Part shown: piece after piece, positions 4,140-55,543 of the stretch | How the letters are laid out: each line of letters begins with the position of its first letter | Numbering within the stretch: position 1 is the first letter of the stretch | Assembly: GCA_020347565.1 (NCBI GenBank) | Contig: CP070732.1 | Location: 1,471,508 to 1,535,507 of the forward strand | Origin: Methanobacteriota archaeon | Lineage (GTDB): Archaea > Thermoplasmatota > Thermoplasmata > UBA10834 | DNA length: 64,000 nucleotides | Direction of reading: 5' to 3' | Made by a program: the position numbers and the translations under genes | Notes under the pieces: model-generated | The model's database searches: none | What the model was told of the DNA's origin: nothing | Seen by the model: the letters and a program-made list of their open reading frames with translations, nothing else

Positions 4140-5348
4140 GTGAGGAGCATGTCGGAAACGGACCACAAGGGGGCGGACGCTGGTATCAGTTCGGACTCGG
4201 AATCAATCGCACGAAGACGGCAGGGGCGGACGGAGGCGCCGCTCGGGAAGAGGCTGCGCATCCTCCTGGTCGTCTCAATCGTGCTCGTGGCTGGCCTCTC
4301 AGCGTTGGCGCTCCTCTCGCCTTCATCAGATGCCGCCGTCCTGTGCGTGATTCTGCCCGAGGAGGAAGCCCCTTTCTCCCATACCGCCGAGATAGAGTCC
4401 GCGGTGACCATGGCCAAGGAGGAGCTGAACGAGTGGGGCGGGATCGGCAACATGAAGATAGAGCTCATGATGGAGGAAACGGAGGTCGAATACGACGACG
4501 TCTCCTCCTTGTTCGAGCGACTCGAGCGCGAGGTGCGTCCGATCGCTTACATGTCCATCAGCTGCGAGCTGCTGTCGATGCTCGCGCCCTTGACCGAGGA
4601 GGCCGAGGTGCCGCTCATCGGTCTGGCATCCGCGCCCGGGCTGACCCAGGGATACGAGTGGACGTACAGGTACTACACCTCTTCCGAACACGAGGTCAAT
4701 TCCACCTTGAGGATCCTTGAGACCCTGGACGTAAGCTCGCTTGGAATCCTCTATTCCGTTAGCCCCCATGGCTGCGGTCTGAACGACCTGCTGGTCGAGA
4801 GGTTCGTAGCGGTGGGGGGCACCGTCGAGTCCCAGGCATGCGAGGCCGAGGAAACGGACTTCACTGACGAGGTCGAGGCGTTGAGCGACAACGACGCGAT
4901 ATTCGTCGTGGCGCACTGCGGCACGCTCGTCACCATGTTCGCCACCCTTGACGAGAGCGGCTACGACGGCTACGTGGTCGCCTCGAGCTGCGCCTCCTCC
5001 CCCACGCTCAGGAGCGTGATGGCGCTGGACAGCTTGTACGTCTCTGCGCCCATACTGTACAAGGCTGAGAACATACTCGCCAGCGAGTTCACCGAGAAGT
5101 TCACGGCGAACTTCGAAATACCGTTCTCTCATCATGCCGCCGTCAGCTACGACATCGTATACCTCGTCCACGACCTCCTCGAGATCGAGGGGCGTGACCC
5201 GACGAGGGCAGTCCTCGGGCAGCGGCTCGCAGACGGCTTCGTGTTATCGGGGGTCATGGGGAGCATGAGGATAGACCCTGGCTCGCATGACTTCCCCATC
5301 CCTGTCTATCCGGCAGTGATATTGGAGGGAGAGCTTTCGTATCTGTAG
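4140..5348 (+). CDS. Membrane-anchored type-1 periplasmic-binding-protein fold (LivJ/ANF-receptor-like) solute-binding protein
   Basis: 402 aa. It has a charged N-terminus, one TM (LRILLVVSIVLVAGLSALALL), then an alternating alpha/beta domain with PBP1-like layout (..PLIGLASAPGLTQ..YRYY..LGILYS..FVVAHCG..YVSAPI..HHAAVSYDIVYL..). The start is GTG 4140 or ATG 4149. It ends in TAG. Confidence 0.65.
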   Translation: MRSMSETDHKGADAGISSDSESIARRRQGRTEAPLGKRLRILLVVSIVLVAGLSALALLSPSSDAAVLCVILPEEEAPFSHTAEIESAVTMAKEELNEWGGIGNMKIELMMEETEVEYDDVSSLFERLEREVRPIAYMSISCELLSMLAPLTEEAEVPLIGLASAPGLTQGYEWTYRYYTSSEHEVNSTLRILETLDVSSLGILYSVSPHGCGLNDLLVERFVAVGGTVESQACEAEETDFTDEVEALSDNDAIFVVAHCGTLVTMFATLDESGYDGYVVASSCASSPTLRSVMALDSLYVSAPILYKAENILASEFTEKFTANFEIPFSHHAAVSYDIVYLVHDLLEIEGRDPTRAVLGQRLADGFVLSGVMGSMRIDPGSHDFPIPVYPAVILEGELSYL

Positions 5349-5401: not shown

Positions 5402-7291
5402 GTGCTGCTGGCCGTGGTCGTCATCCTCGCGGGGCTGACGATGTACGTGCTCGAGGAGGCCAGGGGGGCGCTGGTGGATTCCGTGGGGACCGAGAGCGTT
5501 CACACCGCGGGGTTCATCTCCACGGCCGTCGGACGGGCGATCTACCATAAGTACCACGAGATCTGGCTGCACGGGAGCGAAGCGTCGATGCAGGCCGAGC
5601 TGGCGAAGTCCAACCTCCAATTCGATCACATGGAAGATCGCGAGGCGTACCTGCACTCCATGAACAGCGAGTGGGTTTCCACGCCACCGGGCGAGACGAC
5701 GCCCTTCATGGAGGGCATAATGTCAAACAACATCTCGTACTACCTGAGGACGATGCTTTACGAGCACTACATCCAGGACCACGGGCTCAGCATCTACGGC
5801 AACATAGCCGTGGTGAACAAGTACGGCGCCGTGATAGCCATGGTGCAACGGACGATGTCGTACAAGCAGACCGACGCTCCCTGGTGGGCCGATGCCCTGG
5901 AGCACGGCCACGCCTTCAGCGACATAATAGACTGCGAAATGACGAACGTCCACGGCGTGAGGGTGTACGCTAAGCTACAGGACGCCAACGGCAACTTCAC
6001 GGGCGTCGCGATGGCGCTGCTCGACATCGTCGCCATCTCCGAGGAGGCTGTGTACTTCGGCCGGCTGTACGAGACGACGAAGATGCGCATCGTCACGTCC
6101 GACGGGCGCCTGATATTCTCGGACGGGGCGTTCGTAGCGTTCGACGACGTCTCCGACGAGCAGTACTTCGTGCGCGCCCTCGAGGAGACCAGTGGATACA
6201 CGCTCGCCGCGGAGGGCGGACGTGAGAGGCTGTTCTCGTTCACCCGCTCCACCCCGTACCTGAAGTATGACGGGAACGATTGGATCATACTCGTCGACCA
6301 CGACGCATCAGAGGTCCTAGCTCCCGTGGACGACCTGAGCTCCAAGGTGCTCATAGCGTCCATATCGATCATAGGCCTCGCCATCGGGATATCGCACCTG
6401 TTCGCCTCCTCGGTGTCGAGGCGCGTGAGGCGGCTGACGGACGCCACCACCGACCTGTCCAAGGGGTCCCTCGACAGGCGCGTCGACGTCCTCAGCTCGG
6501 ACGAGCTCGGACAGCTCGCGAACGCTTTCAACAGCATGGCCACGGACCTCGAGGTGCTCTACGACAACCTCGAGCTGAAGGTGCAGGAGAGGACCGCGGC
6601 GCTCGAGAAGGCATCGAAGAAGTTGCAGCTGCTGGGGTCGATCACGCGTCACGACGCACTCAACCAAATCAGCGTCGTCATGGGCTGGCTCTCGGTGATT
6701 GAGGAGTCGCTGCACGATGAGAAGTCCCTCGACATGATGAGGCGGGTCAGAGAGGCAGCGATGAACATCGAGAGGTATCTCGAGTTCACGGGAACGTACG
6801 AACGTGTAGGTGTGAAGCACCCGGAGTGGATCAGGCTCGACGAGGCGCTCACGATCAGCCTGTTCGGGCTGGACCCGCGGCAGTTCCAGCTGCACAACGG
6901 CCTCGCTGGCCTCCACGTGTTCGGCGATCCCATGCTCCCGCGCGTGCTGCGCAACCTGGTCGACAACTCGATAAGGCACGGCGGCGGAATCACGAAGGCG
7001 TCATTCACCTACGAGCGGACGCCCGAGGGCGTCGTGGTTGTCTACGAGGATGACGGCAAGGGCATCCCCGACGACATGAAGACCGTGATCTTCGAGCGCG
7101 GCCTCCAGGCGGGCAGGAAGTCGTTCGGGCTCTACCTGTCGAAGGAGATACTCTCCATAACGGACATGTCGATCAGGGAGGTCGGTACGCCGGGCGAGGG
7201 CGCGAGGTTCGAGATCGTCGTGCCCGAGGGCAGGTACCGGATCGACCGTGAGCCCGTTGCTTCGTCCAAGCGAGAGGGCGAAGGGGAGTAA
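5402..7291 (+). CDS. Sensor histidine kinase (Cache-like sensor, HAMP, HisKA-like, HATPase_c)
   Basis: TM, then an extracytoplasmic Cache-like region (YGNIAVVNKYGAVIAMV..APWWADA), a second TM, HAMP (LTDATTDLSKGSLDRRVDVLSSDELGQLANAFNSM), H-box ITRHDALNQ, and ATPase motifs LRNLVDNSIRHGG, YEDDGKGIP, FGLYLSKEI, GEGARFEIVVP. GTG 5402 is the only canonical start after the in-frame stop at 5288..5290. Confidence 0.85.
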   Translation: MLLAVVVILAGLTMYVLEEARGALVDSVGTESVHTAGFISTAVGRAIYHKYHEIWLHGSEASMQAELAKSNLQFDHMEDREAYLHSMNSEWVSTPPGETTPFMEGIMSNNISYYLRTMLYEHYIQDHGLSIYGNIAVVNKYGAVIAMVQRTMSYKQTDAPWWADALEHGHAFSDIIDCEMTNVHGVRVYAKLQDANGNFTGVAMALLDIVAISEEAVYFGRLYETTKMRIVTSDGRLIFSDGAFVAFDDVSDEQYFVRALEETSGYTLAAEGGRERLFSFTRSTPYLKYDGNDWIILVDHDASEVLAPVDDLSSKVLIASISIIGLAIGISHLFASSVSRRVRRLTDATTDLSKGSLDRRVDVLSSDELGQLANAFNSMATDLEVLYDNLELKVQERTAALEKASKKLQLLGSITRHDALNQISVVMGWLSVIEESLHDEKSLDMMRRVREAAMNIERYLEFTGTYERVGVKHPEWIRLDEALTISLFGLDPRQFQLHNGLAGLHVFGDPMLPRVLRNLVDNSIRHGGGITKASFTYERTPEGVVVVYEDDGKGIPDDMKTVIFERGLQAGRKSFGLYLSKEILSITDMSIREVGTPGEGARFEIVVPEGRYRIDREPVASSKREGEGE

Positions 7292-7331: not shown

Positions 7332-8798
7332 TCACTTCGCCGGAATGTTCTTCTCCGCCTCTTCAACCAGCGCTGCGAGGTCCTTCCTTATGTCCTGTGC
7401 GAGCGGCTCGACCTCGTGAGTCTTGAGGATCTCCTTGGCCTTCTCGCGCGCGTGGTCGGCGGCGTTCTTGCACCCCGCGGCCTTCCAGTTCTTGTAGGGC
7501 TGTCCGTCCGTAACCATGGGTTGCCACATCTCCCTCGCATGGTCGATCGTGTGCTTCTTGCCCATGAAATGCCCTTCATGGCCGACGGCCTCGATCACGT
7601 CGAGGGCCATCGTGTCGTCGTTGATGTCGACGCCCTTGAGCATGTCGGCCATCATGGTGAACATCTCGTGGTCGATTATCAGCTGCTCGTACGACAGCAC
7701 CGTCCAGTTCTCGAGCAGTCCAGGTCCCGAAGTGATGTCCGCGCCGGCGAGGTAGGCGATGAACGCGGAGAACGCCTTCTCGTATCCCGACTGCACGTCG
7801 GGCACCTTGGAGCACGAGCCCCAGCCGCCGATGAATATCGGTATTCTGTAGTATCTGGCCATCTGCACGTGCGCCGCGCGGACCATGTTCGCCGCGGGGA
7901 AGAGCCCCTCCATCAGCCCCGTCTGGACGTCCATGGCCATCGGTTCGGAGCTGTAGCACAGCGGCGAGCCCGGAGCCGCGAGCTGCAGCACCGTTGCGCA
8001 TGCGATGACCTGCGCGTTGCCCAGCAGCGTCGCGCCGGCGACGGTCATAGGCGCCGTCGCGCCCACGAGCGGCATCGCCATCAACAGCGGAGGGCAGCCG
8101 CGCTTGCTGAACTCGATTGCCGCGTCGGTCGTCATGCCAAGGACTAGGGGGGATGTCGTGCACGTCAGATTGGATATGATCGGTCTCCTCCTGAGCTCCT
8201 TCTCGCCGCCGACTATCGCCTCTGCCATCTTCAGCTGGTAGATGGCCTCTTCCTTCTTGTACGTCGAGCCCGTCGTGTAGTGCTTCGAGCAGTTCTCCAT
8301 AGACGCCTCGAACTCGTGCACCGGGTGCGCGTGCTCTGGCACGTCCAGAGGCGTGACGAGAGGGTTGTACATGTGCATCATCGGGAGGTGGTCGACGACC
8401 TTCGCCGACTCGCCGACGTCCTTCTTCGTGGACGGTCTCCTCTCGCCCGTCTCTAAGTCGATCGTCGACAGGCCGACGCCGTCGGTGCACGTGTAGCAGT
8501 GGCTGCCGTCCAGGACGAAATCCTTCTTCGGATCCCTCGAGGCTATCCTGACGGGCCGCTTGCACTTCCTCATCATCTCCTCGACAAGGTAGCTCGGTAT
8601 CTTGCAGACCTTCGTCTTCTCATCCACATCGGCCCCCGCCTCCTGCAGGAGCCGCCTTCCCTGGTCGCTGACCACTTTGATGCCCATGTGTTCCAGCAGG
8701 TACAGCGAGTTGATGTGTATGGCATCCGCCCCGGCGCTCTCCATGACGTCGAGCCGCTTCATGCCGAAGATGCCTCTCTGGAGGTCCTTCGCCGCCAT
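7332..8798 (-). CDS. MttB-superfamily methyltransferase, non-pyrrolysine type (substrate unknown)
   Basis: 488 aa with end-to-end resemblance to trimethylamine methyltransferase MttB family proteins (..IHINSLYLLEHMGIKV.., ..LSTIDLETGERRPSTKKDV.., ..GGEKELRRRPIISNLTCTTSPL.., ..GADITSGPGLLE..). The ORF is uninterrupted, so it has no in-frame TAG. It lies 6 nt downstream of the corrinoid-protein gene. Confidence 0.85.
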   Translation of the reverse strand: MAAKDLQRGIFGMKRLDVMESAGADAIHINSLYLLEHMGIKVVSDQGRRLLQEAGADVDEKTKVCKIPSYLVEEMMRKCKRPVRIASRDPKKDFVLDGSHCYTCTDGVGLSTIDLETGERRPSTKKDVGESAKVVDHLPMMHMYNPLVTPLDVPEHAHPVHEFEASMENCSKHYTTGSTYKKEEAIYQLKMAEAIVGGEKELRRRPIISNLTCTTSPLVLGMTTDAAIEFSKRGCPPLLMAMPLVGATAPMTVAGATLLGNAQVIACATVLQLAAPGSPLCYSSEPMAMDVQTGLMEGLFPAANMVRAAHVQMARYYRIPIFIGGWGSCSKVPDVQSGYEKAFSAFIAYLAGADITSGPGLLENWTVLSYEQLIIDHEMFTMMADMLKGVDINDDTMALDVIEAVGHEGHFMGKKHTIDHAREMWQPMVTDGQPYKNWKAAGCKNAADHAREKAKEILKTHEVEPLAQDIRKDLAALVEEAEKNIPAK

Positions 8799-8804
8799 CG
8801 TCGC

Positions 8805-9464
8805 TCACGCCCCCTTTCCGGCCAGCCCCTTGGCCGTCTCGACCGCGGTGCCCGCATCGGACGAGTATGTCGCGCCTATCTCCTTGGCCCACTCCTCGGT
8901 TACGGCGGCACCGCCGACCATGACCGGCGCGTCGACGCCTGCCGCGCGCAGCGCGTCGACCACCTCCTTCTGCATGCCGACGGTGGTGGTCATGAGCGAC
9001 GACGCGCCGACTATGCCCGCTCCGATCTCCTTCGCCTTGTCGACGAAGAGGTCGTTCGCGGCGTCCTTGCCGACGTCGTGGACCTCGAACCCTCCGGCCT
9101 CGAGCATGATCCTCACCAGGTTCTTGCCGATGTCGAGTATGTCGCCGGCCACCGTTCCGATGACGACCTGCGCGACGACGTTGCGCTTGCTCGCGGCCTT
9201 CTTCAGCTCCGGCTCGAGCACCTTGATGGCGGCGCCCATGATCTCCGCCGCATAGATCAGCTCGACTACGAACATCTCCTTGCGCGCGAACTTCTCGCCC
9301 ACCTCGCGTATGCCCTTCGCGAGGCCGCTCTCTATCGCCTCCACGGGGTCGACCCCCGCGGCGAGGGCCTTGTTGGCTGCCTCTACCGCGGCTTCCTCCT
9401 GGAGGCTCTTCACGGCGTTCTCCAGCTCACCCAATACCGCCTGCCTATCCGCATCTCCGGCCAT
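8805..9464 (-). CDS. Methyltransferase-cognate corrinoid (B12-binding) protein, MtmC/MtbC/MttC-like, with a variant DxLxxG motif
   Basis: 219 aa with an N-terminal helical cap plus a Rossmann B12-binding domain (VVIGTVAGDILDIGKNLVRIMLEAGGFEVHDVG, SSLMTTTV, VMVGGAAVT). Leu110 (CTC, 9135..9137) sits where the His of DxHxxG is expected. Confidence 0.85.
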   Translation of the reverse strand: MAGDADRQAVLGELENAVKSLQEEAAVEAANKALAAGVDPVEAIESGLAKGIREVGEKFARKEMFVVELIYAAEIMGAAIKVLEPELKKAASKRNVVAQVVIGTVAGDILDIGKNLVRIMLEAGGFEVHDVGKDAANDLFVDKAKEIGAGIVGASSLMTTTVGMQKEVVDALRAAGVDAPVMVGGAAVTEEWAKEIGATYSSDAGTAVETAKGLAGKGA

Positions 9465-9500
9465 CCTTCATTCCACCTTTTATGCTTCAAGTGTTCGTTG

Positions 9501-9526
9501 AAAGGCGAGAAAACCGCCTTTTTATC
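9501..9526 (-). promoter_or_regulatory. Putative promoter of the corrinoid/MttB operon: a TATA-like element overlapped by a perfect 7-bp palindrome
   Basis: On the minus strand, GATAAAAAGG (9517..9526) lies about 55 nt upstream of ATG 9464, and an AAGGTGG Shine-Dalgarno precedes the ATG. AAAGGCG (9501..9507) and CGCCTTT (9515..9521) form an inverted repeat with a 7-nt spacer that abuts or overlaps the TATA element. Confidence 0.4.
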
Positions 9527-9901
9527 GTCAGAATAGGTTTGGAGGGCGTCGCCGACGCTCAGAAGTCGTTCCCAGCCTGCAGGCCCGCGCCCGAGTGCAG
9601 CAGCAAACGGACGAACGCGGTGTCAGTCCGGCAGGTCTGCTCCACGGCTGGTGTGGGGCGCCTCGCTCTGCAGCGCTGTGCGATGTGTGTCATCGAACCC
9701 TCCTCGGCTGCCCGAAGCAGGTCGCGCATGCGACGCGCGCGTGCGAGATGTTGCCATAACGCTCCGTCCGTACTTAAGGGTTGACGGGCCTCGGCGGCCT
9801 GCTACATAAAACTGCTTCGGAAAACGATTATAACGATGCCACGCATCCCCATCCAGCCCCGGAAAGGACGCGATGAAGGGGGGCTTTGGAGGTGTTCTCC
9901 A

Positions 9902-11329
9902 TTGGCAGTAGTACGACTCAAGTTTCTTGGCAGGGACGAGGAAGAGCTGGTGCATGAACAGAGCCTGAAGAGCCTGTCGAACCTGGGAGTCAAGGTGAAG
10001 AGCGACAGGGTCCTGAAGATGCTCGAAGACGCCGGAGCCATCGTGGACAGGGACAGGAGCGTGGCGAAGATACCCGAAGACATGGTCAACGACGCGGTCA
10101 AGAACGCGCCGAAGAGCATGGTCCTGGGCGCCCGCAATCCAAAGCACGACAAGAAGGTGCCCGTCGAGACGCACTCCCTCCTCACGACCACGGGACTCGC
10201 GGTCTACACGGTCGATCTGGAAACCGGCGAGAAGCGCCCGTCCACGGACGCCGACCTGGCCGACTTCGCGAAGCTCGCGGACGCGTTGGAGGGGGTCGAC
10301 GTCAGCTGGACGACCGTCACCGCCGGGGACGTCAACCAGGACGCCCTCGCGATAAGGTCGCTCTGGACATCGCTCAAGAACTGCGGAAAGCACATCCAGG
10401 TGGTCCCCGCCGCGAGGGACGGGCGGGATGCCCGGAAGCAGGCGGAGCTCGCAGCCCTCGTCGCAGGCGGGGAGGACGAGCTCAGGAAGCGCCCGCTGTT
10501 CTCCGTCATAAGCTGCCCGGTCGCGCCCCTGTCCTTCGACAGGGGCCCTGTCGACGCCCAGGTCGAGTTCGCCAGGGCGGGCATACCGTTGGTCGCCATG
10601 TCCATGTCGCTCTCGGGGATGTCCGCCCCGGTCACGATGGGAGGGACGCTGGTGAACATCAACACGGAGAACCTTGCGAGCCTCACGATATCGCAGACCG
10701 CCGCTGCGGGCGCTCCGTTCATCTACAGCTCAGAGTCCGCCCCGATAGACATGAAGACGGGCGTTATGGACTACGGTTCCCTAATGTTCCCGTTGATATG
10801 CGCGGGAGCGGAGCAGATGGCCAAGAGGTATGGCCTGCCGACGATGACCGCCAGCTGGGGCTTCGAGACGAAGAACCCTGGCATGCCTTTCGGCGACGTC
10901 TATCACACCGCCGTGAGCCCGTTGTGCGGCTCCGACATGATATCCGGCGCGGGATCTATCGACTCCGCGAAGGGCGCGTCGTTGGAGCAGATGATGGTCG
11001 ACTCCTACATCTGGGAGGACGTGAGGGCCGTCATGAGGAGGTACGACGTGACCGAGGAGACCGCCGCGCTCAATGTCGTCGGGGAGGTAGGCCACGGGAA
11101 CACGTTCCTCCGTCATATCCACACCGTCCGCAACTTCAAGAAGGAGCTGATATTCCGAGACGCGGAGAAGCGGAAGCTGCAGATATCGATGTCCGATGAT
11201 ACGACGCCGAGGGCCAGGGAGGCCGTTCAGCGCATCCTGAAGGAGCACAAGGTGCCTCCGATCGACGCGGACACGCTGCGGAAGGGAGACGAGCTGATAG
11301 CGGCGTACGAGAAGGAGCTCAGGACATAG
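9902..11329 (+). CDS. MttB-superfamily methyltransferase, non-pyrrolysine type (second copy)
   Basis: MttB-family similarity begins at ..LKFLGRDEEELVHEQSLKSLSNLGVKV.. and runs to the end (..VYTVDLETGEKRPSTDADL.., ..GGEDELRKRPLFSVISCPVAPL..). The track start ATG 9836 adds 22 non-homologous residues. TTG 9902 is preceded by GGAGGTG (9888..9894) at 7-nt spacing and gives 475 aa, like the other copies. There is no in-frame TAG. Confidence 0.85.
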   Translation: MAVVRLKFLGRDEEELVHEQSLKSLSNLGVKVKSDRVLKMLEDAGAIVDRDRSVAKIPEDMVNDAVKNAPKSMVLGARNPKHDKKVPVETHSLLTTTGLAVYTVDLETGEKRPSTDADLADFAKLADALEGVDVSWTTVTAGDVNQDALAIRSLWTSLKNCGKHIQVVPAARDGRDARKQAELAALVAGGEDELRKRPLFSVISCPVAPLSFDRGPVDAQVEFARAGIPLVAMSMSLSGMSAPVTMGGTLVNINTENLASLTISQTAAAGAPFIYSSESAPIDMKTGVMDYGSLMFPLICAGAEQMAKRYGLPTMTASWGFETKNPGMPFGDVYHTAVSPLCGSDMISGAGSIDSAKGASLEQMMVDSYIWEDVRAVMRRYDVTEETAALNVVGEVGHGNTFLRHIHTVRNFKKELIFRDAEKRKLQISMSDDTTPRAREAVQRILKEHKVPPIDADTLRKGDELIAAYEKELRT

Positions 11330-11431: not shown

Positions 11432-12553
11432 TCAGATGCCACGCTCCACCCTATTGATCGTTCTCGCCATCTCTTCTGGGCTGGGCCTTTCGGGCATGCT
11501 GTTCGCATTCGGGTCCTTCGTGCACGCGTATTCGACGGCGCCTGACAGCGCTTCCTCGTCATGGTCGCAGACGTCTCCGAGCTTCGTCGGCAGGCCGACG
11601 CTCTCGCACCAGCGTATGATTCTGAGAACCTCATCCTTCGGCCTGCCCTCGTACGCGACCTGGATGATGGTCCCGTAGGCGACTATCTCTCCGTGCTCCC
11701 TCTTGACGGCGCCCGTTCTCGTGAGGCCGTTGTGTATCGCGTGTGCCAGGGCACAGTTGGCGTTCTCGAAGGCGATCGCGGATGTGAGCTTGACCGCCTC
11801 GATCACCTCGTCGACGGCATCGGAATGGGCGCCCCGGGTCAGGTCCTCGACGGCTTCCAGGCCATAGGCCATCAGCGATTGATATGTCGAATCCGCGAGG
11901 GCGAGCGCCGTGTTCGTCGGCGGCTTCCCGCCTCTCCTTCTGACGGCTTCCGCAAACGCCTCGGCCTCGAACTTGGTCGATAGCGCATCGCCCATGCCCC
12001 AAACGAGGAACTTCACGGGTGCCGCAGCTATGATCTCCGTGTCCACGATCACGACGGCCGGGCTACGCGGCAGCACGACGGACTCGAGGAACTCGCGGTC
12101 GTCCGTGTAGACGACGGACTCCGCGCTCGCATCCGCGTTGGTCGCGCATTGGGTGCCGACGGACACGGAGGGCACAGAGAGCTTCCACGCCACCGCCTTC
12201 GCGGTGTCCACCGCCCTGCCGCCTCCCACACCGATCACGAAGTCGGGCTCCGCCCTCATGCCAGCGTCGACGAGGCTGTCTATGGTCGCATATGTGCAAT
12301 CCTTGACCGTCCTGTCCATGGCGACGACCTTGACGCCGCTCGAGCGGAGGGAGTCGCGTATCCTCTTCTCGGTCATCGAGAGGGCCGTACGACCGCCGAT
12401 GATGTACGCTCTTCTCCCGAGCGCCGCCACGCTCTCGCCGAGAAGGGCTATCGCGCCGCTTCCCTGTATGTACCTTGACGCAGCAATCAACTCGTTGACC
12501 TCAACCATTAGCCGTCTCTCCTCGCGGCCTTCCGACGTCAATTCGTCGGACAT
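11432..12553 (-). CDS. gldA: Glycerol dehydrogenase-like iron/zinc-dependent alcohol dehydrogenase
   Basis: 373 aa, colinear with E. coli GldA: GGGRAVDTAKAVA (GGGKTLDTAKA), CATNADASAESVVYT (ASTDAPCSALSVIYT), and metal ligands in GMGDALST, ALAHAIHNG, EHGEIVAYG. True substrate is not determinable from sequence. Confidence 0.75.
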   Translation of the reverse strand: MSDELTSEGREERRLMVEVNELIAASRYIQGSGAIALLGESVAALGRRAYIIGGRTALSMTEKRIRDSLRSSGVKVVAMDRTVKDCTYATIDSLVDAGMRAEPDFVIGVGGGRAVDTAKAVAWKLSVPSVSVGTQCATNADASAESVVYTDDREFLESVVLPRSPAVVIVDTEIIAAAPVKFLVWGMGDALSTKFEAEAFAEAVRRRGGKPPTNTALALADSTYQSLMAYGLEAVEDLTRGAHSDAVDEVIEAVKLTSAIAFENANCALAHAIHNGLTRTGAVKREHGEIVAYGTIIQVAYEGRPKDEVLRIIRWCESVGLPTKLGDVCDHDEEALSGAVEYACTKDPNANSMPERPSPEEMARTINRVERGI

Positions 12554-12625: not shown

Positions 12626-13345
12626 ATGAACGATCAACCGAAGTGTTGCAGCTGCGAGCCTGCCCTTAAGGCAGAGACCAGAGCGAAATACGACACACAG
12701 TGGGTTCTCGTCGACGAGCAGGTTTCAGCCGAACGCAGGAAACACCTCGCTGCGATAGCAGACCCTCTGCTGCGGATGATACTTCCGTTCTCGGGGAAGA
12801 CGGTCGTGGACCTCGGCGTCGGGACCGGAAGCCTCGCGTTCAGGGCAGCCGAGCTGAGCCCTCCGGAGTTGCTGATCGGCATCGACTTCTCCTCCTCCGG
12901 ACTCAGGATGTCGAGGAGGATCTCTGGCGGCGACAGGTTTTCAAGCACTCGATTCGAGGCGGTGATGGGAGACCTGGAACGGCTGCCGTTGTCCGACACG
13001 TGCGCCGACGTGATCCTGAGCCAGGCGAGCTTCAACCTTCTTCCTGACAAGGCCGCAGGCATGAACGAGATGGCTCGCATCGCCAAGCGCGGTGCGAGGA
13101 TACTCCTCTCCGATGCGTTCCGCGCCAGGAGGAAGACGGAGGACGAGCCGTGGGAGGCGTGCGTCGGCGGGGCGATCACCGTCGCGGAGTTCTCCACGCT
13201 CGCTCTGTCGTCGAAGCTCTTCATATCGCAGCAGCTTGACCTCACGCAGCAGGTGAAGGCGCTTGTCAAATCAGGGAAGTGGGATTGGCCCGAGTTCGTC
13301 GAGCACGGGCTTCACTATCGAGGCTTCGTGATGTTCAGATCGTGA
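12626..13345 (+). CDS. Class I SAM-dependent methyltransferase, ArsM-like Cys pattern
   Basis: SAM motif I is VVDLGVGTGSLAF, with post-I IGIDFS and RILLSD. There is an N-terminal CCSC, a mid-protein Cys (SDTCADV) and WEACVGGAITVAEF, resembling the arsenite methyltransferase CxAGA region. Specificity is an inference. Confidence 0.6.
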   Translation: MNDQPKCCSCEPALKAETRAKYDTQWVLVDEQVSAERRKHLAAIADPLLRMILPFSGKTVVDLGVGTGSLAFRAAELSPPELLIGIDFSSSGLRMSRRISGGDRFSSTRFEAVMGDLERLPLSDTCADVILSQASFNLLPDKAAGMNEMARIAKRGARILLSDAFRARRKTEDEPWEACVGGAITVAEFSTLALSSKLFISQQLDLTQQVKALVKSGKWDWPEFVEHGLHYRGFVMFRS

Positions 13346-19381: not shown

Positions 19382-19456
19382 GCTCGGGTATCCTTCAACT
19401 CGCACAAACCCTTTTCTTCGTTCTTGTCGATTCACGACAGGCAAGGCGGTTCTCTC

Positions 19457-20641
19457 ATGGCCAGTCGTAGGCTGCCAGCGGCGGTGGAGCGTGATTTGCA
19501 CGCCTGCCTTCAATGCGGCTACTGCAACTTCGTATGTCCGATACAACTCAACCCTGGTCTCGGTTGGGAGTCGTACCGCGTCCGCGGCAAGATGTATCAT
19601 CTGAGGAGGTATGCCCATCCTGGGCTGCTGGAGCGCATCGCCGGTGACCGCGCGAAGATATCGCCCGAGTTTGTGGAGCGAGTATACAACTGCACTGCAT
19701 GCGGCTACTGTCAGGTCGCTTGCCACGTCGAGATCAAGTTCAACGACAGGTGGGAGGAGCTGAAGGAGTGGTTCGTGGAGAACGGCATCGGCCCTCTGGA
19801 GCGACACAAGGCCCTTCGCTCGCGGGTCATTGCGAAGCGAAACCCGTACGACGAGCCGCACGAGCGCAGAGCGGACTGGATACCGAGGAGCCATCACAAG
19901 CCGAAGCACCCCGAGGTGCTGTTCTTCGCGGGCTGCACCGCGAGCTACCGGCAGCAGAAGATTGCTGTGGACACGTTGCGCGTGCTCGACGCAGCAGGTG
20001 TGGAGTACGACATCCTCGGCACGGACGAGTGGTGTTGTGGCTCGCCCCTCATACGCACTGGACAGACGGACATCGTCGTCGACGAGGCGGACGGGTTGGT
20101 GAAGCACAACCTCTGGGAGATAGAGAAGCGAGGCATAGACACGGTCGTGACGGCGTGCGCAGGATGCTTCATGACGCTCAGTCACAACTACCCGATGTAC
20201 GCCGGGATGCACGATTTCAAGCTGTACCACATGACGCAGTTCATCGACCGGCTTATATCGCAGAAGAAGCTGACCTTGAAGAAGCCGCTGGCGGGAAGGG
20301 TCGCCTATCACGACCCCTGCCACATAGGTAGGCACTTCGGCATATTCGAGGAGCCGAGGCGTGTGCTGAAGGCCTTCCCCGAGTCCCGCTATCTCGAGAT
20401 GCCTCGGAATAGGCTTGACTCCCTGTGCTGCGGCGCCGGGGGCGGGTTCAAGATACAGTTCAACGACCGGGCGGAGCACATCGCCTCTCTGCGAGTCGAG
20501 GAGGCGAAGTCCGTCGGCGCCGATATGCTCGTGTCCGCCTGTCCGTTCTGCGTGACGAACCTCTCGCACGGTGCTAGGCGCGCAGGCATCGACATGCCTG
20601 TGGCGGAGATGGTTTCCCTCGTGGCAGATTCGGTGTCGTGA
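19457..20641 (+). CDS. HdrD/GlcF-like iron-sulfur protein (2x[4Fe-4S] + two CCG domains)
   Basis: CLQCGYCNFVCP and CTACGYCQVACH are followed by two Cys-rich CCG-type repeats (..EWCCGSP.., ..SLCCGAGGGF.., ..CPFC). ATG 19457 has AAGGCGGT 6 nt upstream; the track start is TTG 19424. Confidence 0.75.
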   Translation: MASRRLPAAVERDLHACLQCGYCNFVCPIQLNPGLGWESYRVRGKMYHLRRYAHPGLLERIAGDRAKISPEFVERVYNCTACGYCQVACHVEIKFNDRWEELKEWFVENGIGPLERHKALRSRVIAKRNPYDEPHERRADWIPRSHHKPKHPEVLFFAGCTASYRQQKIAVDTLRVLDAAGVEYDILGTDEWCCGSPLIRTGQTDIVVDEADGLVKHNLWEIEKRGIDTVVTACAGCFMTLSHNYPMYAGMHDFKLYHMTQFIDRLISQKKLTLKKPLAGRVAYHDPCHIGRHFGIFEEPRRVLKAFPESRYLEMPRNRLDSLCCGAGGGFKIQFNDRAEHIASLRVEEAKSVGADMLVSACPFCVTNLSHGARRAGIDMPVAEMVSLVADSVS

Positions 20642-38590: not shown

Positions 38591-39595
38591 TCAATTGAAC
38601 TTCTCGCCGCAGGAGGGGCACGACTTGGCGTCCGATGGCACGTCGGCGCCGCACTCGGAACATACGAAGGAGTCGGGCTCCTCCTCGAGACCTATCGCCC
38701 TCGCCAGGCTGGGGGAGCGCGAATCGTCCTCGGGCGGCTTCGCTTCTATCTTCTTGCGCTTCTGTTCCCACTCCTGGATGGCCTTCTCCCTCATGCGCCT
38801 GGCGCGTCTCGTCCACCACACCATGCCGCATATGATGGCGTATATCGGGAAGAACTGCAGATAGGACTGGATGAGTGTTATGTGGCGCAGGACCCAGATG
38901 CCGAGGTCAACGGAGTCGGACGAGATCGGTCCGATGGCGATCATCTCGTCGCCGTCGTCGGTGTAGTCGGTGGCTACTATCCAAGTCCCGCTCACATTGG
39001 CGGCGAACTCGAACGCGTTGTACGGCTCAGAAAGCGTCGTCCTGTACTCGTAGAAGTACTCCCCCGAAGTCTCGTTCGAATCGGCGAGCGTCATGGACTC
39101 GTTCGTGCTGTCCCCGATCCATGCGATGGTGACCCTGACCTCCGTGATGTTGAAGGTCTCGTTGGCGGGCCTCACGGTCACCGAGTACGTGAACAGGGTC
39201 GAGGAATCCCCGTTCATCGGGGTCACGATGCCGTCGTACAGTGTATTGTCCGGGTCGGAGCTGAACGCCGTCTGGGGCTCCAACGACTGGAAGGCCGACA
39301 CGAGGAAGGCCGTCGAGATCGCGAGCAGGAGCGTGCACCCGATGAACCCGTACACAAGCAGCTTTCGGACTCTCTTGACGTCGAAATTCCAGAAGAGGCC
39401 GAAGAGGATCAGTGGGGGCAGCAGACCGAGCCAGCATGACCCCATCATGTACGCCAGCATCAGGTAGTAGATGACCGCGGTGATGCCTATCGCGACAGGC
39501 GCCGTGTACTTTGTCTTCTTGAACTTCTCGTACTCCTGCTTCAGGAACTTGATCAGCCAATCTGCTGGGGCACCCGATGCCTCATCGCTAGCCAT
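38591..39595 (-). CDS. Membrane protein with extracellular N-glycosylation-rich domain and C-terminal cytoplasmic zinc ribbon
   Basis: Only the last 334 codons of the 698-aa track ORF look real, starting MASDEASGAPADWLIKFL. It has 4-5 TMs, sequons NET, NIT, NES, NET and NVS, and a C-terminus ..FVCSECGADVPSDAKSCPSCGEKFN. The upstream 364 codons are antisense to carbamate kinase. Confidence 0.6.
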   Translation of the reverse strand: MASDEASGAPADWLIKFLKQEYEKFKKTKYTAPVAIGITAVIYYLMLAYMMGSCWLGLLPPLILFGLFWNFDVKRVRKLLVYGFIGCTLLLAISTAFLVSAFQSLEPQTAFSSDPDNTLYDGIVTPMNGDSSTLFTYSVTVRPANETFNITEVRVTIAWIGDSTNESMTLADSNETSGEYFYEYRTTLSEPYNAFEFAANVSGTWIVATDYTDDGDEMIAIGPISSDSVDLGIWVLRHITLIQSYLQFFPIYAIICGMVWWTRRARRMREKAIQEWEQKRKKIEAKPPEDDSRSPSLARAIGLEEEPDSFVCSECGADVPSDAKSCPSCGEKFN

Positions 39596-39664
39596 CGTCG
39601 GAGGCAACTTGGTGGTTGCATAAAAAACTTGGCCGCGTTTGCGCGCCGCGGTACTGCAACAACG

Positions 39665-39673
39665 CTTATATAC
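39665..39673 (+). promoter_or_regulatory. TATA-box-like element (CTTATATAC) upstream of carbamate kinase
   Basis: It lies ~47 nt upstream of ATG 39716, and GGAGGAGGG lies 7 nt before the ATG. Confidence 0.4.
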
Positions 39674-39715
39674 GCCCCCCTCAATGGAATCAACTTCCCG
39701 GAGGAGGGCCCGGTC

Positions 39716-40681
39716 ATGAAGACAGCGGTCATAGCGATCGGAGGCAACGCCATACTGCGTCCAGGCGACCGACTGACGCAGGAGAACCAGATGAAGCACG
39801 TCGCAGAGACGGCGCGCGGCCTGGTCGACCTCATACAGAGGGGCTTCGACATCGTCATCACCCATGGTAACGGACCTCAGGTCGGGGATATACTTCTCAG
39901 AGCGGAGATAGCCAGGGGAGAGGTGACGCCGAACGCGCTTGACGTGTGCGTGGCTGAAAGCCAGGGCCAGATAGGGTACATGTTGCAGAAAGCGCTGTCG
40001 TCGGAGTTCCTGGATAGGGGGATGAACAAGATCGCCGTGGCGTTGGTGACGCAGGTGAAGGTCTCGGAGGACGACCCGGCCTTTGCGAACCCCTCGAAGC
40101 CAATAGGCAAGTACTACACGGAAGAGGAGGCCCGCAGGATGGAGCACGAAAGGGGCTGGGTCATGTCCCTGGACAAGAGGCGCGGCGGCTGGAGACGCCT
40201 CGTGCCGTCGCCCGAGCCGACCGCCATCGTCGAGAGCACGCCCGTCCGTCGGCTCGTGTTCGGCGGGGAGGACCAGGCCGAGGTCGTGATCGCCTGCGGC
40301 GGAGGCGGCGTGCCCGTCGTCCTGAAAGGCGGACGCTATGTGGGCGTCGAGGCGGTAGTTGACAAGGACCTCGCCGCGGCCTTGCTGGCCAACAGCATCA
40401 GGGAGCGGCTGTTCGTCATCGCGACGGACGTAGACCACGTCTTCGTCGACTACGGAAAGCCGTCCCAGAGGGCGCTCGAGAAGACGACCCTTTCCGAGAT
40501 GAAGAGGTTGTACGACGAGGGGCAGTTCCCTTCGGGGACGATGGGCCCGAAGGCCCTGGCGGCCATCCGGTTCCTGGAGAACGGCGGCGAGGAAGTCGTC
40601 ATAACGGCCACCGAGAAGCTTGTCGACGCACTCGAGGCCGGCGCTGGAACACATATCTATCGGGACGATATTAGCCGATGA
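39716..40681 (+). CDS. arcC: Carbamate kinase
   Basis: MKTAVIAIGGNAIL, ITHGNGPQVG, VCVAESQGQIGY, IACGGGGVPV, VDKDLAAALLA and FPSGTMGPK are colinear with ArcC/carbamate kinase-like enzymes. Confidence 0.85.
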   Translation: MKTAVIAIGGNAILRPGDRLTQENQMKHVAETARGLVDLIQRGFDIVITHGNGPQVGDILLRAEIARGEVTPNALDVCVAESQGQIGYMLQKALSSEFLDRGMNKIAVALVTQVKVSEDDPAFANPSKPIGKYYTEEEARRMEHERGWVMSLDKRRGGWRRLVPSPEPTAIVESTPVRRLVFGGEDQAEVVIACGGGGVPVVLKGGRYVGVEAVVDKDLAAALLANSIRERLFVIATDVDHVFVDYGKPSQRALEKTTLSEMKRLYDEGQFPSGTMGPKALAAIRFLENGGEEVVITATEKLVDALEAGAGTHIYRDDISR

Positions 40682-40685
40682 GGCC

Positions 40686-41789
40686 ATGGCGACAATCGAG
40701 GAGCAGATAAGGGAGATCGAGGATGAGATCTCCAGGACGCCCTACAACAAGAGCACGCAGCACCATATCGGAAGGCTGAAGGCCAAGCTCGCGCGCCTGA
40801 AGGACAGCCTGGAGGCGAGGAGATCGCGCTCGGGACGGGGCAAGGGCTATTCGGTCAGGAAATCCGGTCACGCCACGGTCGCCATAGTCGGATTCCCAAG
40901 TGTGGGCAAGTCCACCCTCCTCAACAAGATAACCAACGCCGACAGCGAGGTCGCTGCGTATCACTTCACCACGCTTACGGTAGTCCCAGGCGAGATGGAG
41001 CATCGCGGCGCGAAGATACAGGTGCTCGACCTGCCCGGGCTCATCAAGGACGCCTCGAAGGGCAAGGGGAGGGGCAAGGAGGTCCTGTCGGTCGTACGGT
41101 CGGCGGACCTGATACTGCTGATGATAGACGTGTTCGAGACCAACCTGGACGTTCTCGTCGAGGAGCTGAGAACCGCGAACCTGAGGCTGAACCAGCGCCC
41201 TCCGGATATCGTCGTGTCTCGGAGGAATAGGGGAGGCATAGGCGTGAGCTTCACGACCCCGAAGCCATCCCTCGATGAGGACCTCGTGCGCGATATGATG
41301 AACGAATACGGCTACATCAACGCCGATATCGTCATCCGCGAGGACGTTGACGAGGACCAGCTGATAGACCACATCTCAGGGAACAGGATATACATACCAG
41401 GCATCGTGGCAGTGAACAAGATAGACCTTGTCAGCGAGGAGTACCTCAGGCAGCTGAAGGAGAAGAAGCTCGGGGGTTGGAAGGTCGTGCCCATATCCGC
41501 CGAGGAGGACATAGGGCTCGACGAACTCAGGGACTGCGTTTTTGACTCGCTCCGCCTGATACGCGTCTACATGAAACCGCAGGGCAAGGAGGCGGATATG
41601 GTCGAGCCGCTCGTGATCAGGGCCGGCTCGGACATCGGCGCCGTGTGTGACTCCATCCATCGCGACTTCAGGAGGAACTTCAGGTACGCACAGGTCTGGG
41701 GAGAGAGCGCGCGGTTCCCGGGTCAGATCGTCGGGCTCGAGCACGAAGTCGTGGACCAGGACGTGATCACTCTCATAGTGAGGAGATGA
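40686..41789 (+). CDS. DRG/Rbg1-type OBG-family GTPase with C-terminal TGS domain
   Basis: MATIEEQIREIEDEISRTPYNKSTQHHIGRLKAKLARL, G1 GFPSVGKSTLL, G3 DLPGLI, G4 NKIDL. The TGS-like end is ..RYAQVWGESARFPGQIVGLEHEVVDQDVITLI. Confidence 0.85.
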   Translation: MATIEEQIREIEDEISRTPYNKSTQHHIGRLKAKLARLKDSLEARRSRSGRGKGYSVRKSGHATVAIVGFPSVGKSTLLNKITNADSEVAAYHFTTLTVVPGEMEHRGAKIQVLDLPGLIKDASKGKGRGKEVLSVVRSADLILLMIDVFETNLDVLVEELRTANLRLNQRPPDIVVSRRNRGGIGVSFTTPKPSLDEDLVRDMMNEYGYINADIVIREDVDEDQLIDHISGNRIYIPGIVAVNKIDLVSEEYLRQLKEKKLGGWKVVPISAEEDIGLDELRDCVFDSLRLIRVYMKPQGKEADMVEPLVIRAGSDIGAVCDSIHRDFRRNFRYAQVWGESARFPGQIVGLEHEVVDQDVITLIVRR

Positions 41790-48302: not shown

Positions 48303-49730
48303 TCAGGCGTACTCCGACATGATCGCGTCTATTGCCCTGTCCACATCGTCATCCAATGGCTCCGGCTTGTGCTCGGCCAGGATGCTCCTCACCCTCTTCC
48401 TCGCCTGGTCGACGATTCCTTCGTTGCCGGCGTCGAAGCTGTAGCTGTTGTAGAGCGCCGCCTTCTCGGAATCCGGGATGAACAGTTCCTTTCTCATGTT
48501 CCTGAGGGTGTGAGGCTCGCCCAGGAACGTGCCCCCAGGCCCGACCTTCTCGAGCAGGTCGACCGCGAAGTGGTCCTCGTCGATGCTGACGTCTCTGCGC
48601 AGACTCCTGATTGACTCCCACACATCGGAGTCTATGATCAGCTGTTCCAGCGCCGCACCCTTCGCCTGGTCAAGGCTGCCTATGCCGGACGAGAAATCGG
48701 TGAGCGACAAGTTCGTCATGGCCGTCATGCTCATCTCCGCTACAGTCGCGGATATCCCGGGTTTGTCGCCGCCGAGGCCGAAGCTCCCGACCATCGAGGG
48801 AGCTTCGTACGATTTCGCCATCTGTCCGACCGCGGCTGCGATTATGACCTCCTCGATGGAGCCGTACTTGATCTCCCCTGTGCGCATGTTGATTATGCTG
48901 GATTCGGAGCTGTAGACCACCGGTGCGCCGGGCTTGGCCAGCTGCGATATGACGAAGCTGGCGAGGTTCTCGGCGTTGACGATTGTAATCGTCGACGCGA
49001 GCGTCACCGGCGCGGTAAGGCCGCAAAGCGCCATGGACATCGACACGACCGGGATGCCAGCCTTCGCGAAGACCATTGTCGCCTCTATCGACCCCCGCTC
49101 GAACTCGAGCGGGCAGATCGGGCATTGAATCGTCGAGAATATCGGCCTCTTCGCGAGCTCATCCTCGCCTCCGACGACGGCGGAGGCGACGCGCACCATG
49201 TCCTCTGCCTCCTTCTCGGACAGTCCTTCTCCCTGGAAGTGCTTGGTCGAGTTCCGGAGCGAGATGACGAGGTCGTTCAGTCCGCGTGCCTTCTCCGGGC
49301 CGTCCTGGGCCGTCACGATGGGCCAGAGATAATCGATGGAGTCGATCGCGTCGCTCAGGATCGTGAAGTCCTTCAGGTCGTCACCCAGTGTCGCGCGCTT
49401 CTCGCCGGTGTCGAGGTCCCACATGTAAACGGCAGTGCCATTTGTGGCCATGTACGGAGGTCCGCGCCTCGGGGCTTTCATGTCCTGTGCCGGGTCCCTT
49501 GCGCACAGCGAAACCTCTTTGGGCATCGCCTTGATGGCTTCGTTCACCATGTGTTCAGTGAGATATGCTGTGCTGGTCTCGCGGTCGACGAGCGCTCCTC
49601 CGTGCTCCAGTGTGTCCAGCGCCTTCTCGCTGAGCACCTTTACGCCCGTCTCCTCGAGGACATACAGCGTCTTCTCGTGTACCCGCTCGATATCGTCTCT
49701 AGACAGAATGCTTATCTGGCAAACCGACAT
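48303..49730 (-). CDS. MttB-superfamily methyltransferase, non-pyrrolysine type (third copy)
   Basis: MSVCQISILSRDDIERVHEKTLYVLEETGVKV.., ..VYMWDLDTGEKRATLGDDL.., ..GGEDELAKRPIFSTIQCPICPL... 475 aa, uninterrupted by TAG. Confidence 0.85.
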   Translation of the reverse strand: MSVCQISILSRDDIERVHEKTLYVLEETGVKVLSEKALDTLEHGGALVDRETSTAYLTEHMVNEAIKAMPKEVSLCARDPAQDMKAPRRGPPYMATNGTAVYMWDLDTGEKRATLGDDLKDFTILSDAIDSIDYLWPIVTAQDGPEKARGLNDLVISLRNSTKHFQGEGLSEKEAEDMVRVASAVVGGEDELAKRPIFSTIQCPICPLEFERGSIEATMVFAKAGIPVVSMSMALCGLTAPVTLASTITIVNAENLASFVISQLAKPGAPVVYSSESSIINMRTGEIKYGSIEEVIIAAAVGQMAKSYEAPSMVGSFGLGGDKPGISATVAEMSMTAMTNLSLTDFSSGIGSLDQAKGAALEQLIIDSDVWESIRSLRRDVSIDEDHFAVDLLEKVGPGGTFLGEPHTLRNMRKELFIPDSEKAALYNSYSFDAGNEGIVDQARKRVRSILAEHKPEPLDDDVDRAIDAIMSEYA

Positions 49731-51089: not shown

Positions 51090-51178
51090 TGCCGGGTCAT
51101 CCACGGAAAACTCAAGGGAAGGGGTTTGAGCAGCCTCGGCTCTGTCGAACGGGCTGCTGGCGAACGAGTGAGACAGCT

Positions 51179-51664: not shown

Positions 51665-51838
51665 TCTTCCTTTTGCTGTAGGGCACGGTTGATACCTTGC
51701 GGTTACTCGAAAACTCAAACAATCGCTTCGAGAAACAAGTGTTCGCTCAGTCGAGAGTCGGGCTTTCCTGTATCGCTTGGCACACAACCAGTGCTGGGTG
51801 TAATGTGAAGCTCATGGTATTTATACTATCGCCTATAT

Positions 51839-52134: not shown

Positions 52135-52192
52135 TATTTGTGGCAACGGCCCCCTCTCCACCCGGACAACTTTTGACGCGAAGGATGACAGC

Positions 52193-55472: not shown

Positions 55473-55543
55473 TTGACCAACAGCCTTCTTACGCCGAATC
55501 GTATCCCGAGGCCGCCCTGGATCCTTCTCAGCGTCTGAGATTC

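Follow-up and report, generated by a model that had tools for sequence, protein, structure and literature searches.

A conserved cluster of non-pyrrolysine MttB-superfamily methyltransferases around one corrinoid protein in a Thermoplasmata archaeon

Background

The gene cluster described here lies in a 64,000-nucleotide stretch of DNA (the window) from contig CP070732.1 (assembly GCA_020347565.1) of an archaeon of the Thermoplasmata order UBA10834, and consists of two divergent methyltransferase genes of the MttB superfamily around a single gene for a corrinoid protein. Among the closest described systems, that of Methanosarcina barkeri, MttB-MttC (7XCL, 7XCN), has a pyrrolysine (Pyl)-containing methyltransferase for trimethylamine (TMA), the active site of which is lined by Gly110-Thr111, Met249, Pyl334 and Tyr364; the tyrosine is 100% conserved in Pyl-MttBs, and the Y364F substitution lowers the Vmax of the M. 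barkeri enzyme ~28-fold (PMC9842639). In Desulfitobacterium hafniense, the glycine betaine:tetrahydrofolate (THF, H4F) system MtgB-MtgC-MtgA (2QNE, 9YCE) has a non-Pyl methyltransferase I (MT1), MtgB, in which Y97 and F356 hold the quaternary nitrogen of the substrate, and R312 and H348 its carboxylate; R312L abolishes MtgB activity, and R312L and R312K are both described as crippling (PMC13080624). R312 is common to all characterised non-Pyl members, MtgB, MtpB, MtcB, MtyB and MthB (PMC13080624), which for the Eubacterium limosum enzymes is the paper's own statement.

The E. limosum enzymes MtpB, MtcB, MtyB and MthB, which work with MtqC/MthC, MtqA/MthA and RamQ, represent a bacterial system of many paralogues, each with its own substrate, that share corrinoid and downstream proteins. 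A preliminary description of the window correctly listed MtgB, MtpB, MtcB and MtyB as characterised non-Pyl members; the list was incomplete in that it left out MthB, the sixth characterised member of the superfamily, which acts on phosphocholine (PMC12155760). The characterised substrates other than TMA are all acidic (PMC12155760). Non-Pyl MttB and MtbC-like gene sets with unassigned substrates are also present in Atabeyarchaeia, Freyarchaeia and Brockarchaeia, where a non-methanogenic methylotrophy feeding into the Wood-Ljungdahl pathway has been proposed (PMC11291895).

The order UBA10834, 'Ca. Gimiplasmatales', is a non-methanogenic sister of Methanomassiliicoccales. Metagenome-assembled genomes (MAGs) of the order have already been reported to carry mttB and mttC without an MtaA-type subunit or methyltransferase II (MT2), together with the H4F methyl branch and ACS/CODH, and on this basis a methylotrophic form of acetogenesis, running through 'an undescribed protein', has been put forward (10.1101/2020.03.09.984617; PMC11264602).

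Gene content and family assignment

The genes under study and the region between them are as follows.

7332-8798, minus strand: MttB1, 488 amino acids (aa), non-pyrrolysine MttB-superfamily methyltransferase, predicted MT1; last gene of an operon of small open reading frame (ORF), corrinoid protein and MttB1
8805-9464, minus strand: corrinoid (cobamide-binding) protein, MttC/MtbC-like, 219 aa
9559-9693, minus strand: small ORF, 44 aa, first gene of the corrinoid-protein operon
9694-9901, no strand: stretch between the small ORF and MttB2, a putative divergent promoter region
9902-11329, plus strand: MttB2, 475 aa, non-pyrrolysine MttB-superfamily methyltransferase, the second of the cluster, with a TTG start; predicted to act as MT1 on another substrate
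48303-49730, minus strand: MttB3, 475 aa, unlinked third paralogue, 38 kb from the cluster

On balance, we consider it probable that the MttB paralogues are MT1s that share one corrinoid protein in a methylotrophy module native to a Thermoplasmata archaeon that is itself non-methanogenic. According to the ORF list with translations, the three methyltransferase genes and the corrinoid-protein gene are all intact and full length. The arrangement given in the preliminary description, a divergent pair of MttB genes around a corrinoid-protein gene with a third copy further along, was borne out by the family profiles: PF06253 (MTTB) is matched over positions ~28-499 of 500, with E-values of 4e-90 (MttB1), 1.4e-63 (MttB2) and 1.1e-78 (MttB3). 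The absence of an in-frame TAG codon that it noted in all three holds as well; these ORFs are stop-free by construction and therefore contain none, and the column of the pyrrolysine is occupied by glycine. Scores against TIGR02369, the model for Pyl-MttB, are 460, 370 and 380 bits for MttB1, MttB2 and MttB3, all under the curated cut-off of 525.

Sequence identity is 28-32% to M. barkeri MttB (31.6% for MttB1) and 27-30% to D. hafniense MtgB; MttB2 is 31% identical to MttB1 and 45% identical to MttB3. Among solved proteins, MttB1 is nearest to M. barkeri MttB (250 bits, compared with 188 bits for MtgB). An AlphaFold2 model of MttB1 with a predicted template-modelling score (pTM) of 0.81 superimposes on 7xcl, 2qne and 9yce with a template-modelling (TM) score of 0.73, and the ten Foldseek matches with E ≤ 0.001 all belong to 7xcl, 7xcm, 7xcn, 2qne, 9yce and 4yyc (TM 0.71-0.75). 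As modelled, MttB1 has the TIM-barrel fold of the MttB superfamily with its C-terminal dimerisation extension.

The corrinoid protein combines a helical cap and a Rossmann domain, B12-binding_2 (PF02607, E 3e-18) and B12-binding (PF02310, E 2e-20); it scores 180.5 bits on TIGR02370, under the cut-off of 215.3, and its closest solved relative is M. barkeri MttC (7xcn_M, E 5e-47). It is the only B12-binding protein among the ~55 window ORFs that were scanned against Pfam or NCBIfam. Its stop codon lies 6 nt from the start of MttB1, and MttB1 and MttB2 are divergent. For MttB2, 9836 and 9902 are both listed as starts; the one at 9902, a TTG codon behind GGAGGTG, agrees with the N-termini of the orthologues and with the 475-aa protein deposited at NCBI. 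Adjacency of methyltransferase and corrinoid genes is common to this cluster and the M. barkeri system, as is that of a non-Pyl MT1 and its cognate corrinoid protein to the D. hafniense system, and divergent transcription of functionally linked genes is also seen in E. limosum (mthB and mthK).

Active-site residues and predicted substrate class

The three enzymes were aligned with M. barkeri MttB and D. hafniense MtgB, and none of them has the substrate-binding residues of a characterised member. The column of Pyl334 is glycine in each, within GGW-G-SCS (MttB1), ASW-G-FET (MttB2) and GSF-G-LGG (MttB3). The compared positions read as follows.

Column of MtgB Y97: V in MttB1, L in MttB2, T in MttB3
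Column of MtgB R312: F in MttB1, M in MttB2, M in MttB3
Column of MtgB H348 and MttB Tyr364: S in MttB1, S in MttB2, S in MttB3
Column of MtgB F356: W in MttB1, A in MttB2, A in MttB3
Residue 333 and Pyl334: W-G in MttB1, W-G in MttB2, F-G in MttB3

Two residues that contact the corrin or line the pocket of M. barkeri MttB, Gly110 and Met249, are retained in all three, while none of the four ligand-binding residues of MtgB is kept, save for an aromatic residue, Trp, at position 356 of MttB1. The resulting signatures are stable. That of MttB1, G110/V/M249/F/W-G/S/W, is invariant or near-invariant in 28 orthologues; that of MttB2 reads G/L/M/[MLQH]/W-G/[SA]/A across 19 orthologues; and that of MttB3 is G/T/M/M/F-G/S/A. 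Serine in the Tyr364 column is found in the MttB1 orthologues and most MttB2 orthologues as well, and arginine in the R312 column in none of 49 orthologues and paralogues from related loci.

By these residues, the cluster lacks the defining features of both Pyl-MttB and the characterised group acting on acidic quaternary amines. The pyrrolysine mechanism for TMA is excluded because Pyl and Tyr364 are absent, and the substrates probably differ from glycine betaine, proline betaine, carnitine, gamma-butyrobetaine, phosphocholine and trimethylamine. Since the acid-binding Arg and His are missing and the pocket is lined by hydrophobic or aromatic side chains (Phe, Trp-Gly and Trp at the compared positions of MttB1, with F329, W333 and W372 as a proposed cage), we tentatively predict that the donors are non-acidic, either quaternary ammonium compounds or similar onium species, such as ones that resemble choline or tetramethylammonium, a prediction to which we would give somewhat less than an even chance. 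Three enzymes with substrates or names that invite comparison lie outside the family: the choline/tetramethylammonium enzyme of Methanococcoides is an MtmB homologue (PMC13044021); the Bathyarchaeia 'MtgB' O-demethylase is a protein of ~300 aa with no homology to known methyltransferases (PMC10989822); and the chloromethane enzyme CdmB falls within the UroD superfamily (PMC13222342).

Betaines are abundant in sediments, and the enzymes could instead use these compounds and bind the acid group through residues other than those at positions 312 and 348. This would agree with the acidity of the characterised substrates other than TMA (PMC12155760), and the active-site loops of the MttB1 model are poor enough that other basic residues could reach the pocket. 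We nevertheless regard it as unlikely, given that R312 is shared by all characterised non-Pyl members and that R312L and R312K cripple MtgB; nor is there a betaine transporter or binding protein of the BCCT or ProX type nearby, the neighbours being a transporter of the major facilitator superfamily (MFS) and a LivJ-type binding protein.

Place in the superfamily

A phmmer search against 1.84 billion cluster representatives recovered 7,143 relatives, of which 1,344 had E ≤ 1e-30; the nearest representative is just 44% identical. A rough neighbour-joining tree, rooted at its midpoint, was built from two solved references, M. barkeri MttB and D. hafniense MtgB, and the 150 nearest representatives, a sample selected for its similarity to MttB1. 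In this tree MttB2 and MttB3 are sisters, and all three window enzymes belong to one 42-member clade apart from both references. Gly110 and Met249 are kept in 37 of the 42 members, at positions 333-334 Gly or Ala usually follows a hydrophobic or aromatic residue, and Arg in the 312 column occurs in none. By this rough tree, MttB1-3 belong to a clade without a characterised member. The preliminary description had allowed that the three might fall inside an already characterised clade with conserved substrate-binding residues; in the event, Y97, R312, H348 and F356 are all replaced and the enzymes group separately.

Conservation among related Thermoplasmata

The window is even in composition (~61% GC), its other genes are archaeal in character (DUF1616, topoisomerase VI A and B, split glutamate-synthase-like genes), and the nearest public reads come from sediment metagenomes. 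The corrinoid protein, MttB2 and MttB3 are identical to NCBI proteins that lie on a single contig of 1,966,570 bp. The close homologues of MttB1 are all from uncultured Thermoplasmata. Synteny was compared in a sample of 34 related genome loci (labelled by L-numbers), including UBA10834 (L001), RBG_13_57_23 (L022) and UBA9653 (L029), MAGs from the published work on the order, each with an orthologous cluster. In most of the 34 the order is SAM-methyltransferase, iron-containing alcohol dehydrogenase (Fe-ADH) and MttB2, divergent from small ORF, corrinoid protein, MttB1, Cache-HAMP kinase, Peripla_BP_6 protein and rubrerythrin. Orthologues are 68-92% identical for MttB1 (28 genomes), 56-83% for MttB2 and 72-94% for the corrinoid protein. 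Because the gene order recurs in relatives with these identities, the cluster is native, vertically inherited, order-wide and under purifying selection.

MttB2 adjoins the corrinoid-protein operon in ~22 of the 34 loci; it is not adjacent in L008, L012, L024 and L025, despite 5-9 kb of sequence upstream of the corrinoid-protein gene. In the basal loci L023, L026 and L027, three to five MttB paralogues are arranged around a single corrinoid-protein gene, which is the pattern of multi-substrate MT1 sets. MttB3, which has no corrinoid protein of its own, has orthologues, 59-65% identical, in 13 metagenome loci.

The small ORF and the putative divergent promoter region

The first gene of the corrinoid-protein operon encodes a 44-aa protein (MTHIAQRCRARRPTPAVEQTCRTDTAFVRLLLHSGAGLQAGNDF), with GAGGAGGG upstream of it. 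Alignment of the 438-bp spacer between the corrinoid-protein and MttB2 genes places it 95 nt upstream of the former and on its strand, and a profile search found a copy directly upstream of the corrinoid-protein gene, again on the same strand, in 22 related loci. Its 39 database homologues are all hypothetical proteins of Thermoplasmata, the name that some NCBI MAGs give to it, and it is confined to Thermoplasmata of this group. The core motif LL[LM]H[SL]GAGLQ[VA]G is invariant, the third codon positions vary at 13 of 13 sites, and pairwise codon differences comprise 886 synonymous and 166 non-synonymous changes; the small ORF therefore encodes a protein, clearly under purifying selection, rather than an RNA element. 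It matches no Pfam family, and AlphaFold2 gives it a disordered basic N-terminus and one helix (residues 25-36), with a mean predicted local distance difference test score (pLDDT) of 65.

In 14 aligned intergenic regions, the box TTAAGTA (reverse complement of 9771-9777) is invariant, and ATTATAA (9829-9835) is kept as an AT-rich element. We infer that the former may be the archaeal TATA box of the operon of small ORF, corrinoid protein and MttB1 and the latter that of MttB2, which would make the two promoters back-to-back. No Rfam family, the cobalamin riboswitch included, is matched anywhere in the window. A hairpin between the small ORF and the corrinoid-protein gene, AAAGGCGG-TTTTCT-CGCCTTT (within 9465-9558), was considered as an RNA element and rejected, as it folds no better than shuffled sequences (z = 0.16); it is kept among the closest relatives only.

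The cobalt-ligand position of the corrinoid protein

In the window protein, the DxHxxG motif reads GDILDIG, with Leu110 (codon CTC; A at 9136 on the plus strand) in place of the cobalt-ligand histidine, His107 of M. barkeri MttC; Asp and Thr, the rest of the ligand triad, are unchanged, as in MttC. The histidine is present in 30 of 30 orthologues (GDIHDIG in 29, GVIHDIG in one), so that Leu is unique among 31 sequences, and the four solved homologues read GD[IL]H where the window protein has GDIL. Loss of the histidine as a feature of the family can be rejected, Leu being confined to this genome. A 3.1-kb Logan contig from a sediment run (X1) has T at 9136, which gives CAC, His; contigs of this run are 99.9% identical to the window over 10 kb, with 10 differing sites, 4 synonymous and 6 non-synonymous.

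If the Leu allele is real, the protein of this strain would be expected to bind cobamide 'His-off', a state that in MetH and MtaC mutants strongly lowers activity, most of which is lost when the His ligand is mutated. The module could then be crippled in this genome, with His110Leu removing the lower axial cobalt ligand in a recent relic, or the Leu could be an assembly consensus error. The uniqueness of Leu, against 30 orthologues and the four solved homologues, and the His of the nearly identical X1 contig speak for this reading. We consider it improbable all the same: no frameshift or stop interrupts any other gene of the cluster, the remaining 9 differences from X1 (4 synonymous, 5 non-synonymous) are ordinary strain-level single-nucleotide variants, and the Leu-bearing protein is exactly the sequence deposited at NCBI. 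Moreover, His-off corrinoid proteins work elsewhere, as in the corrinoid iron-sulfur protein (CFeSP).

Missing methyltransferase II and activase

No methyltransferase of the MtgA/AcsE (pterin-binding), MtaA/MtbA (URO-D) or MtrH type and no RamA-type activase was found among the ~55 window ORFs, nor do the ORF families that are conserved within 10 kb of it in the 34 loci include an MT2 or a RamA-type activase. When all ORFs of these loci were clustered, the conserved families were the cluster genes, a YdjM-like membrane protein, a large surface protein, a sodium:solute symporter, a radical-SAM protein and a flavoprotein. The preliminary description had proposed a substrate:corrinoid methyltransferase module of unspecified substrate whose MtbA/MtaA, MtgA and RamA partners are missing from the window and act in trans, unless the module is wired differently; the absence is now extended to 10 kb on either side in 34 loci, and all tests run agree with the proposal.

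The three window enzymes differ from M. barkeri MttB in the lack of UAG and Pyl, in the Ser at Tyr364 and in their TIGR02369 scores, and their host order lacks mcr and pyl genes according to the literature on it. Unlike the D. hafniense system, the window has neither an adjacent MtgA nor a betaine-type transporter. The E. limosum enzymes keep R312, use acidic quaternary amines and have an identified MT2 and activase, in contrast to the enzymes of the window. The gene sets of Atabeyarchaeia, Freyarchaeia and Brockarchaeia resemble ours in composition, but an MtrH-type gene that is a candidate MT2 lies nearby in the Asgard genomes (PMC11291895) and none does at the window cluster.

Proposed mechanism and its alternatives

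In the reading that we prefer, each MttB paralogue would be a substrate-specific MT1, the TIM barrel of which positions a methyl-onium donor for attack on the methyl group by the Co(I) of the shared cobamide protein, yielding methyl-Co(III). The methyl group would then be moved by an unlinked or unrecognised MT2, the likely acceptor being tetrahydrofolate and, through it, the Wood-Ljungdahl pathway reported for the order. The binding protein and Cache-HAMP kinase described below would sense the substrate outside the cell, and the MFS transporter would bring in that of MttB3.

Several points weigh against this proposal. The pLDDT of the MttB1 model is below 50 at the active-site loops (residues 325-334 and 355-375), and the predicted substrate class comes from a sequence alignment. 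Arginine in the R312 column is scarce superfamily-wide (~9 of the 150 nearest cluster representatives); its absence here is therefore not distinctive but typical of the uncharted bulk of the family. With no MT2 or activase in the window or within 10 kb in 34 relatives, the downstream half of the pathway is hypothetical, the locus was matched in no RNA-seq run searched, and the missing His ligand may impair the module in this strain.

It is decidedly unlikely, in our estimate, that the cluster represents a self-sufficient corrinoid variant, in which non-acidic onium compounds (choline-like, tetramethylammonium-like or protonated methylamines) would be demethylated without Pyl or prior substrate activation, a paralogue or the 44-aa protein would replace the MT2 or activase, and the methyl group would enter the H4F Wood-Ljungdahl pathway. 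The narrower idea of a self-contained system, with an MttB paralogue such as MttB2 acting as MT2 to H4F, tetrahydromethanopterin (H4MPT) or another acceptor, or with the 44-aa protein standing in for an activase or chaperone, draws on the absence of MT2 and RamA from the window, from the flanks of the 34 loci and, according to the literature, from the MAGs of the order, as well as on the divergent MttB1/MttB2 pairing kept in ~22 loci and the tight linkage of the small ORF to the corrinoid-protein gene. It seems very unlikely to us, as MttB2 is not adjacent in four loci with ample upstream sequence, the basal arrays of three to five paralogues fit substrate diversification, and a role as a RamA-like reductase can be excluded for the 44-aa peptide, which has neither an ATP-binding motif nor a Cys cluster; to our knowledge there is also no MT2 of the MttB family.

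Finally, a tertiary amine is a poor substrate without activation, and we regard as highly doubtful the notion that MttB1 is a Pyl-independent methyltransferase for TMA or a simple methylamine, holding the protonated amine in an aromatic cage: its proximity to M. barkeri MttB among solved proteins, its 460 of 525 TIGR02369 bits, its retained G110 and M249, the F, W and W at three pocket positions and the sister relationship of the host lineage to the TMA-using Methanomassiliicoccales would fit, but Pyl334 is replaced by Gly and Tyr364 by Ser, the tree does not group MttB1 with M. barkeri MttB, and no non-Pyl member is known to use TMA, MtgB being inactive with it (PMC13080624).

Neighbouring genes

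The genes adjacent to the cluster and to MttB3 include the following.

4140-5348, plus strand: membrane-anchored LivJ-type binding protein, Peripla_BP_6 (Pfam)
5402-7291, plus strand: dCache-HAMP histidine kinase (Pfam), convergent with MttB1
11432-12553, minus strand: Fe-ADH, glycerol-dehydrogenase-like (NCBIfam 303 bits, cut-off 336; glycerol dehydrogenases in PDB, E 3e-62)
12626-13345, plus strand: ArsM-like SAM (S-adenosylmethionine) methyltransferase, two genes from MttB2 (NCBIfam matches all under cut-off)
49854-51089, plus strand: MFS transporter (MFS/DHA-type NCBIfam matches), divergent from MttB3

The binding protein and the kinase are syntenic with the corrinoid-protein and MttB1 genes in at least 16 loci and stand beside MttB1 even in the rearranged L024 and L025; they are a candidate extracellular substrate-sensor pair. 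The binding protein is distant from solved LivJ-type proteins (best E 1e-10), too far to suggest a ligand, and no response regulator is present among the window ORFs scanned. On the other side, the Fe-ADH and the SAM methyltransferase, the latter with an N-terminal CCxC motif and an ACVGGA motif, are syntenic in 14-18 loci, and their link to the module is uncertain. The distant loci L011, L013, L016, L021 and L029 add two genes between Fe-ADH and MttB2 that are absent from the window: one for a protein of ~265 aa that ends in a V4R domain, which binds small molecules, and, directly downstream of MttB2, an ORF of ~250-275 aa with no family above threshold and a sub-threshold COX15-CtaA match, which may encode a membrane protein. 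Neither is read as an MT2 or RamA.

The divergent pairing of the MFS transporter with MttB3 is kept in all 12 metagenome loci that reach that side, and the transporter probably imports the MttB3 substrate. A 188-aa protein of no known family is likewise always paired divergently with MttB3 (window 49854-51692, plus strand; L035-L048). A zinc-containing alcohol dehydrogenase (Zn-ADH) and DeoC are beside MttB3 in the window; elsewhere 2-3 kb of unrelated genes intervene, with DUF5788, a class-III aminotransferase and a 4Fe-4S protein between MttB3 and Zn-ADH.

Other features of the window

Three further regions were noted. A run of genes at 52052-62115 (plus strand) encodes an FAD/4Fe-4S oxidoreductase, two Glu_synthase-domain proteins with ferredoxin domains, a GXGXG/GATase protein and a GltD-like NADPH oxidoreductase, and looks like an archaeal split glutamate-synthase-like complex. 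At 38591-40687 (minus strand) and 39629-40681 (plus strand), long ORFs overlap on opposite strands; the plus-strand ORF belongs to the amino-acid-kinase family (E 1e-22), while the minus-strand ORF, of 698 aa, has a C-terminal zinc ribbon only, and its upstream part is probably a shadow ORF of a GC-rich genome. The gene at 19424-20641 (plus strand) encodes an HdrD/GlpC-like protein with two CCG domains and a 4Fe-4S dicluster; genes of the heterodisulfide-reductase type are on record for these relatives of methanogens, which are themselves non-methanogenic.

Conclusions

The new elements are the conserved architecture of the operon, the gene for the 44-aa protein, the putative sensor pair, the pairing of MttB3 with an MFS transporter, the exclusion of known specificities at residue level and the Leu allele of the corrinoid protein. 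As far as the available portions of the published surveys go, they describe neither the conserved organisation of the operon nor its small ORF, the putative sensor pair or the residues of the active sites.

In metagenomes of anoxic sediments, few 'methylotrophy' genes are commoner than non-Pyl MttB homologues. The superfamily, with more than 7,000 clusters at 50% identity, has only six known substrates, all those of non-Pyl members being acidic quaternary amines. Against this background the cluster is a good candidate for biochemistry rather than a surprise: an order-wide conserved test case in a lineage next to the H2-dependent methylotrophic methanogens. Its substrates and methyl acceptor, once found, would reveal whether methylated compounds are an object of competition between methanogens and these abundant archaea, and would bear on how methyl transfer changed as methanogenesis was gained or lost in Thermoplasmata.

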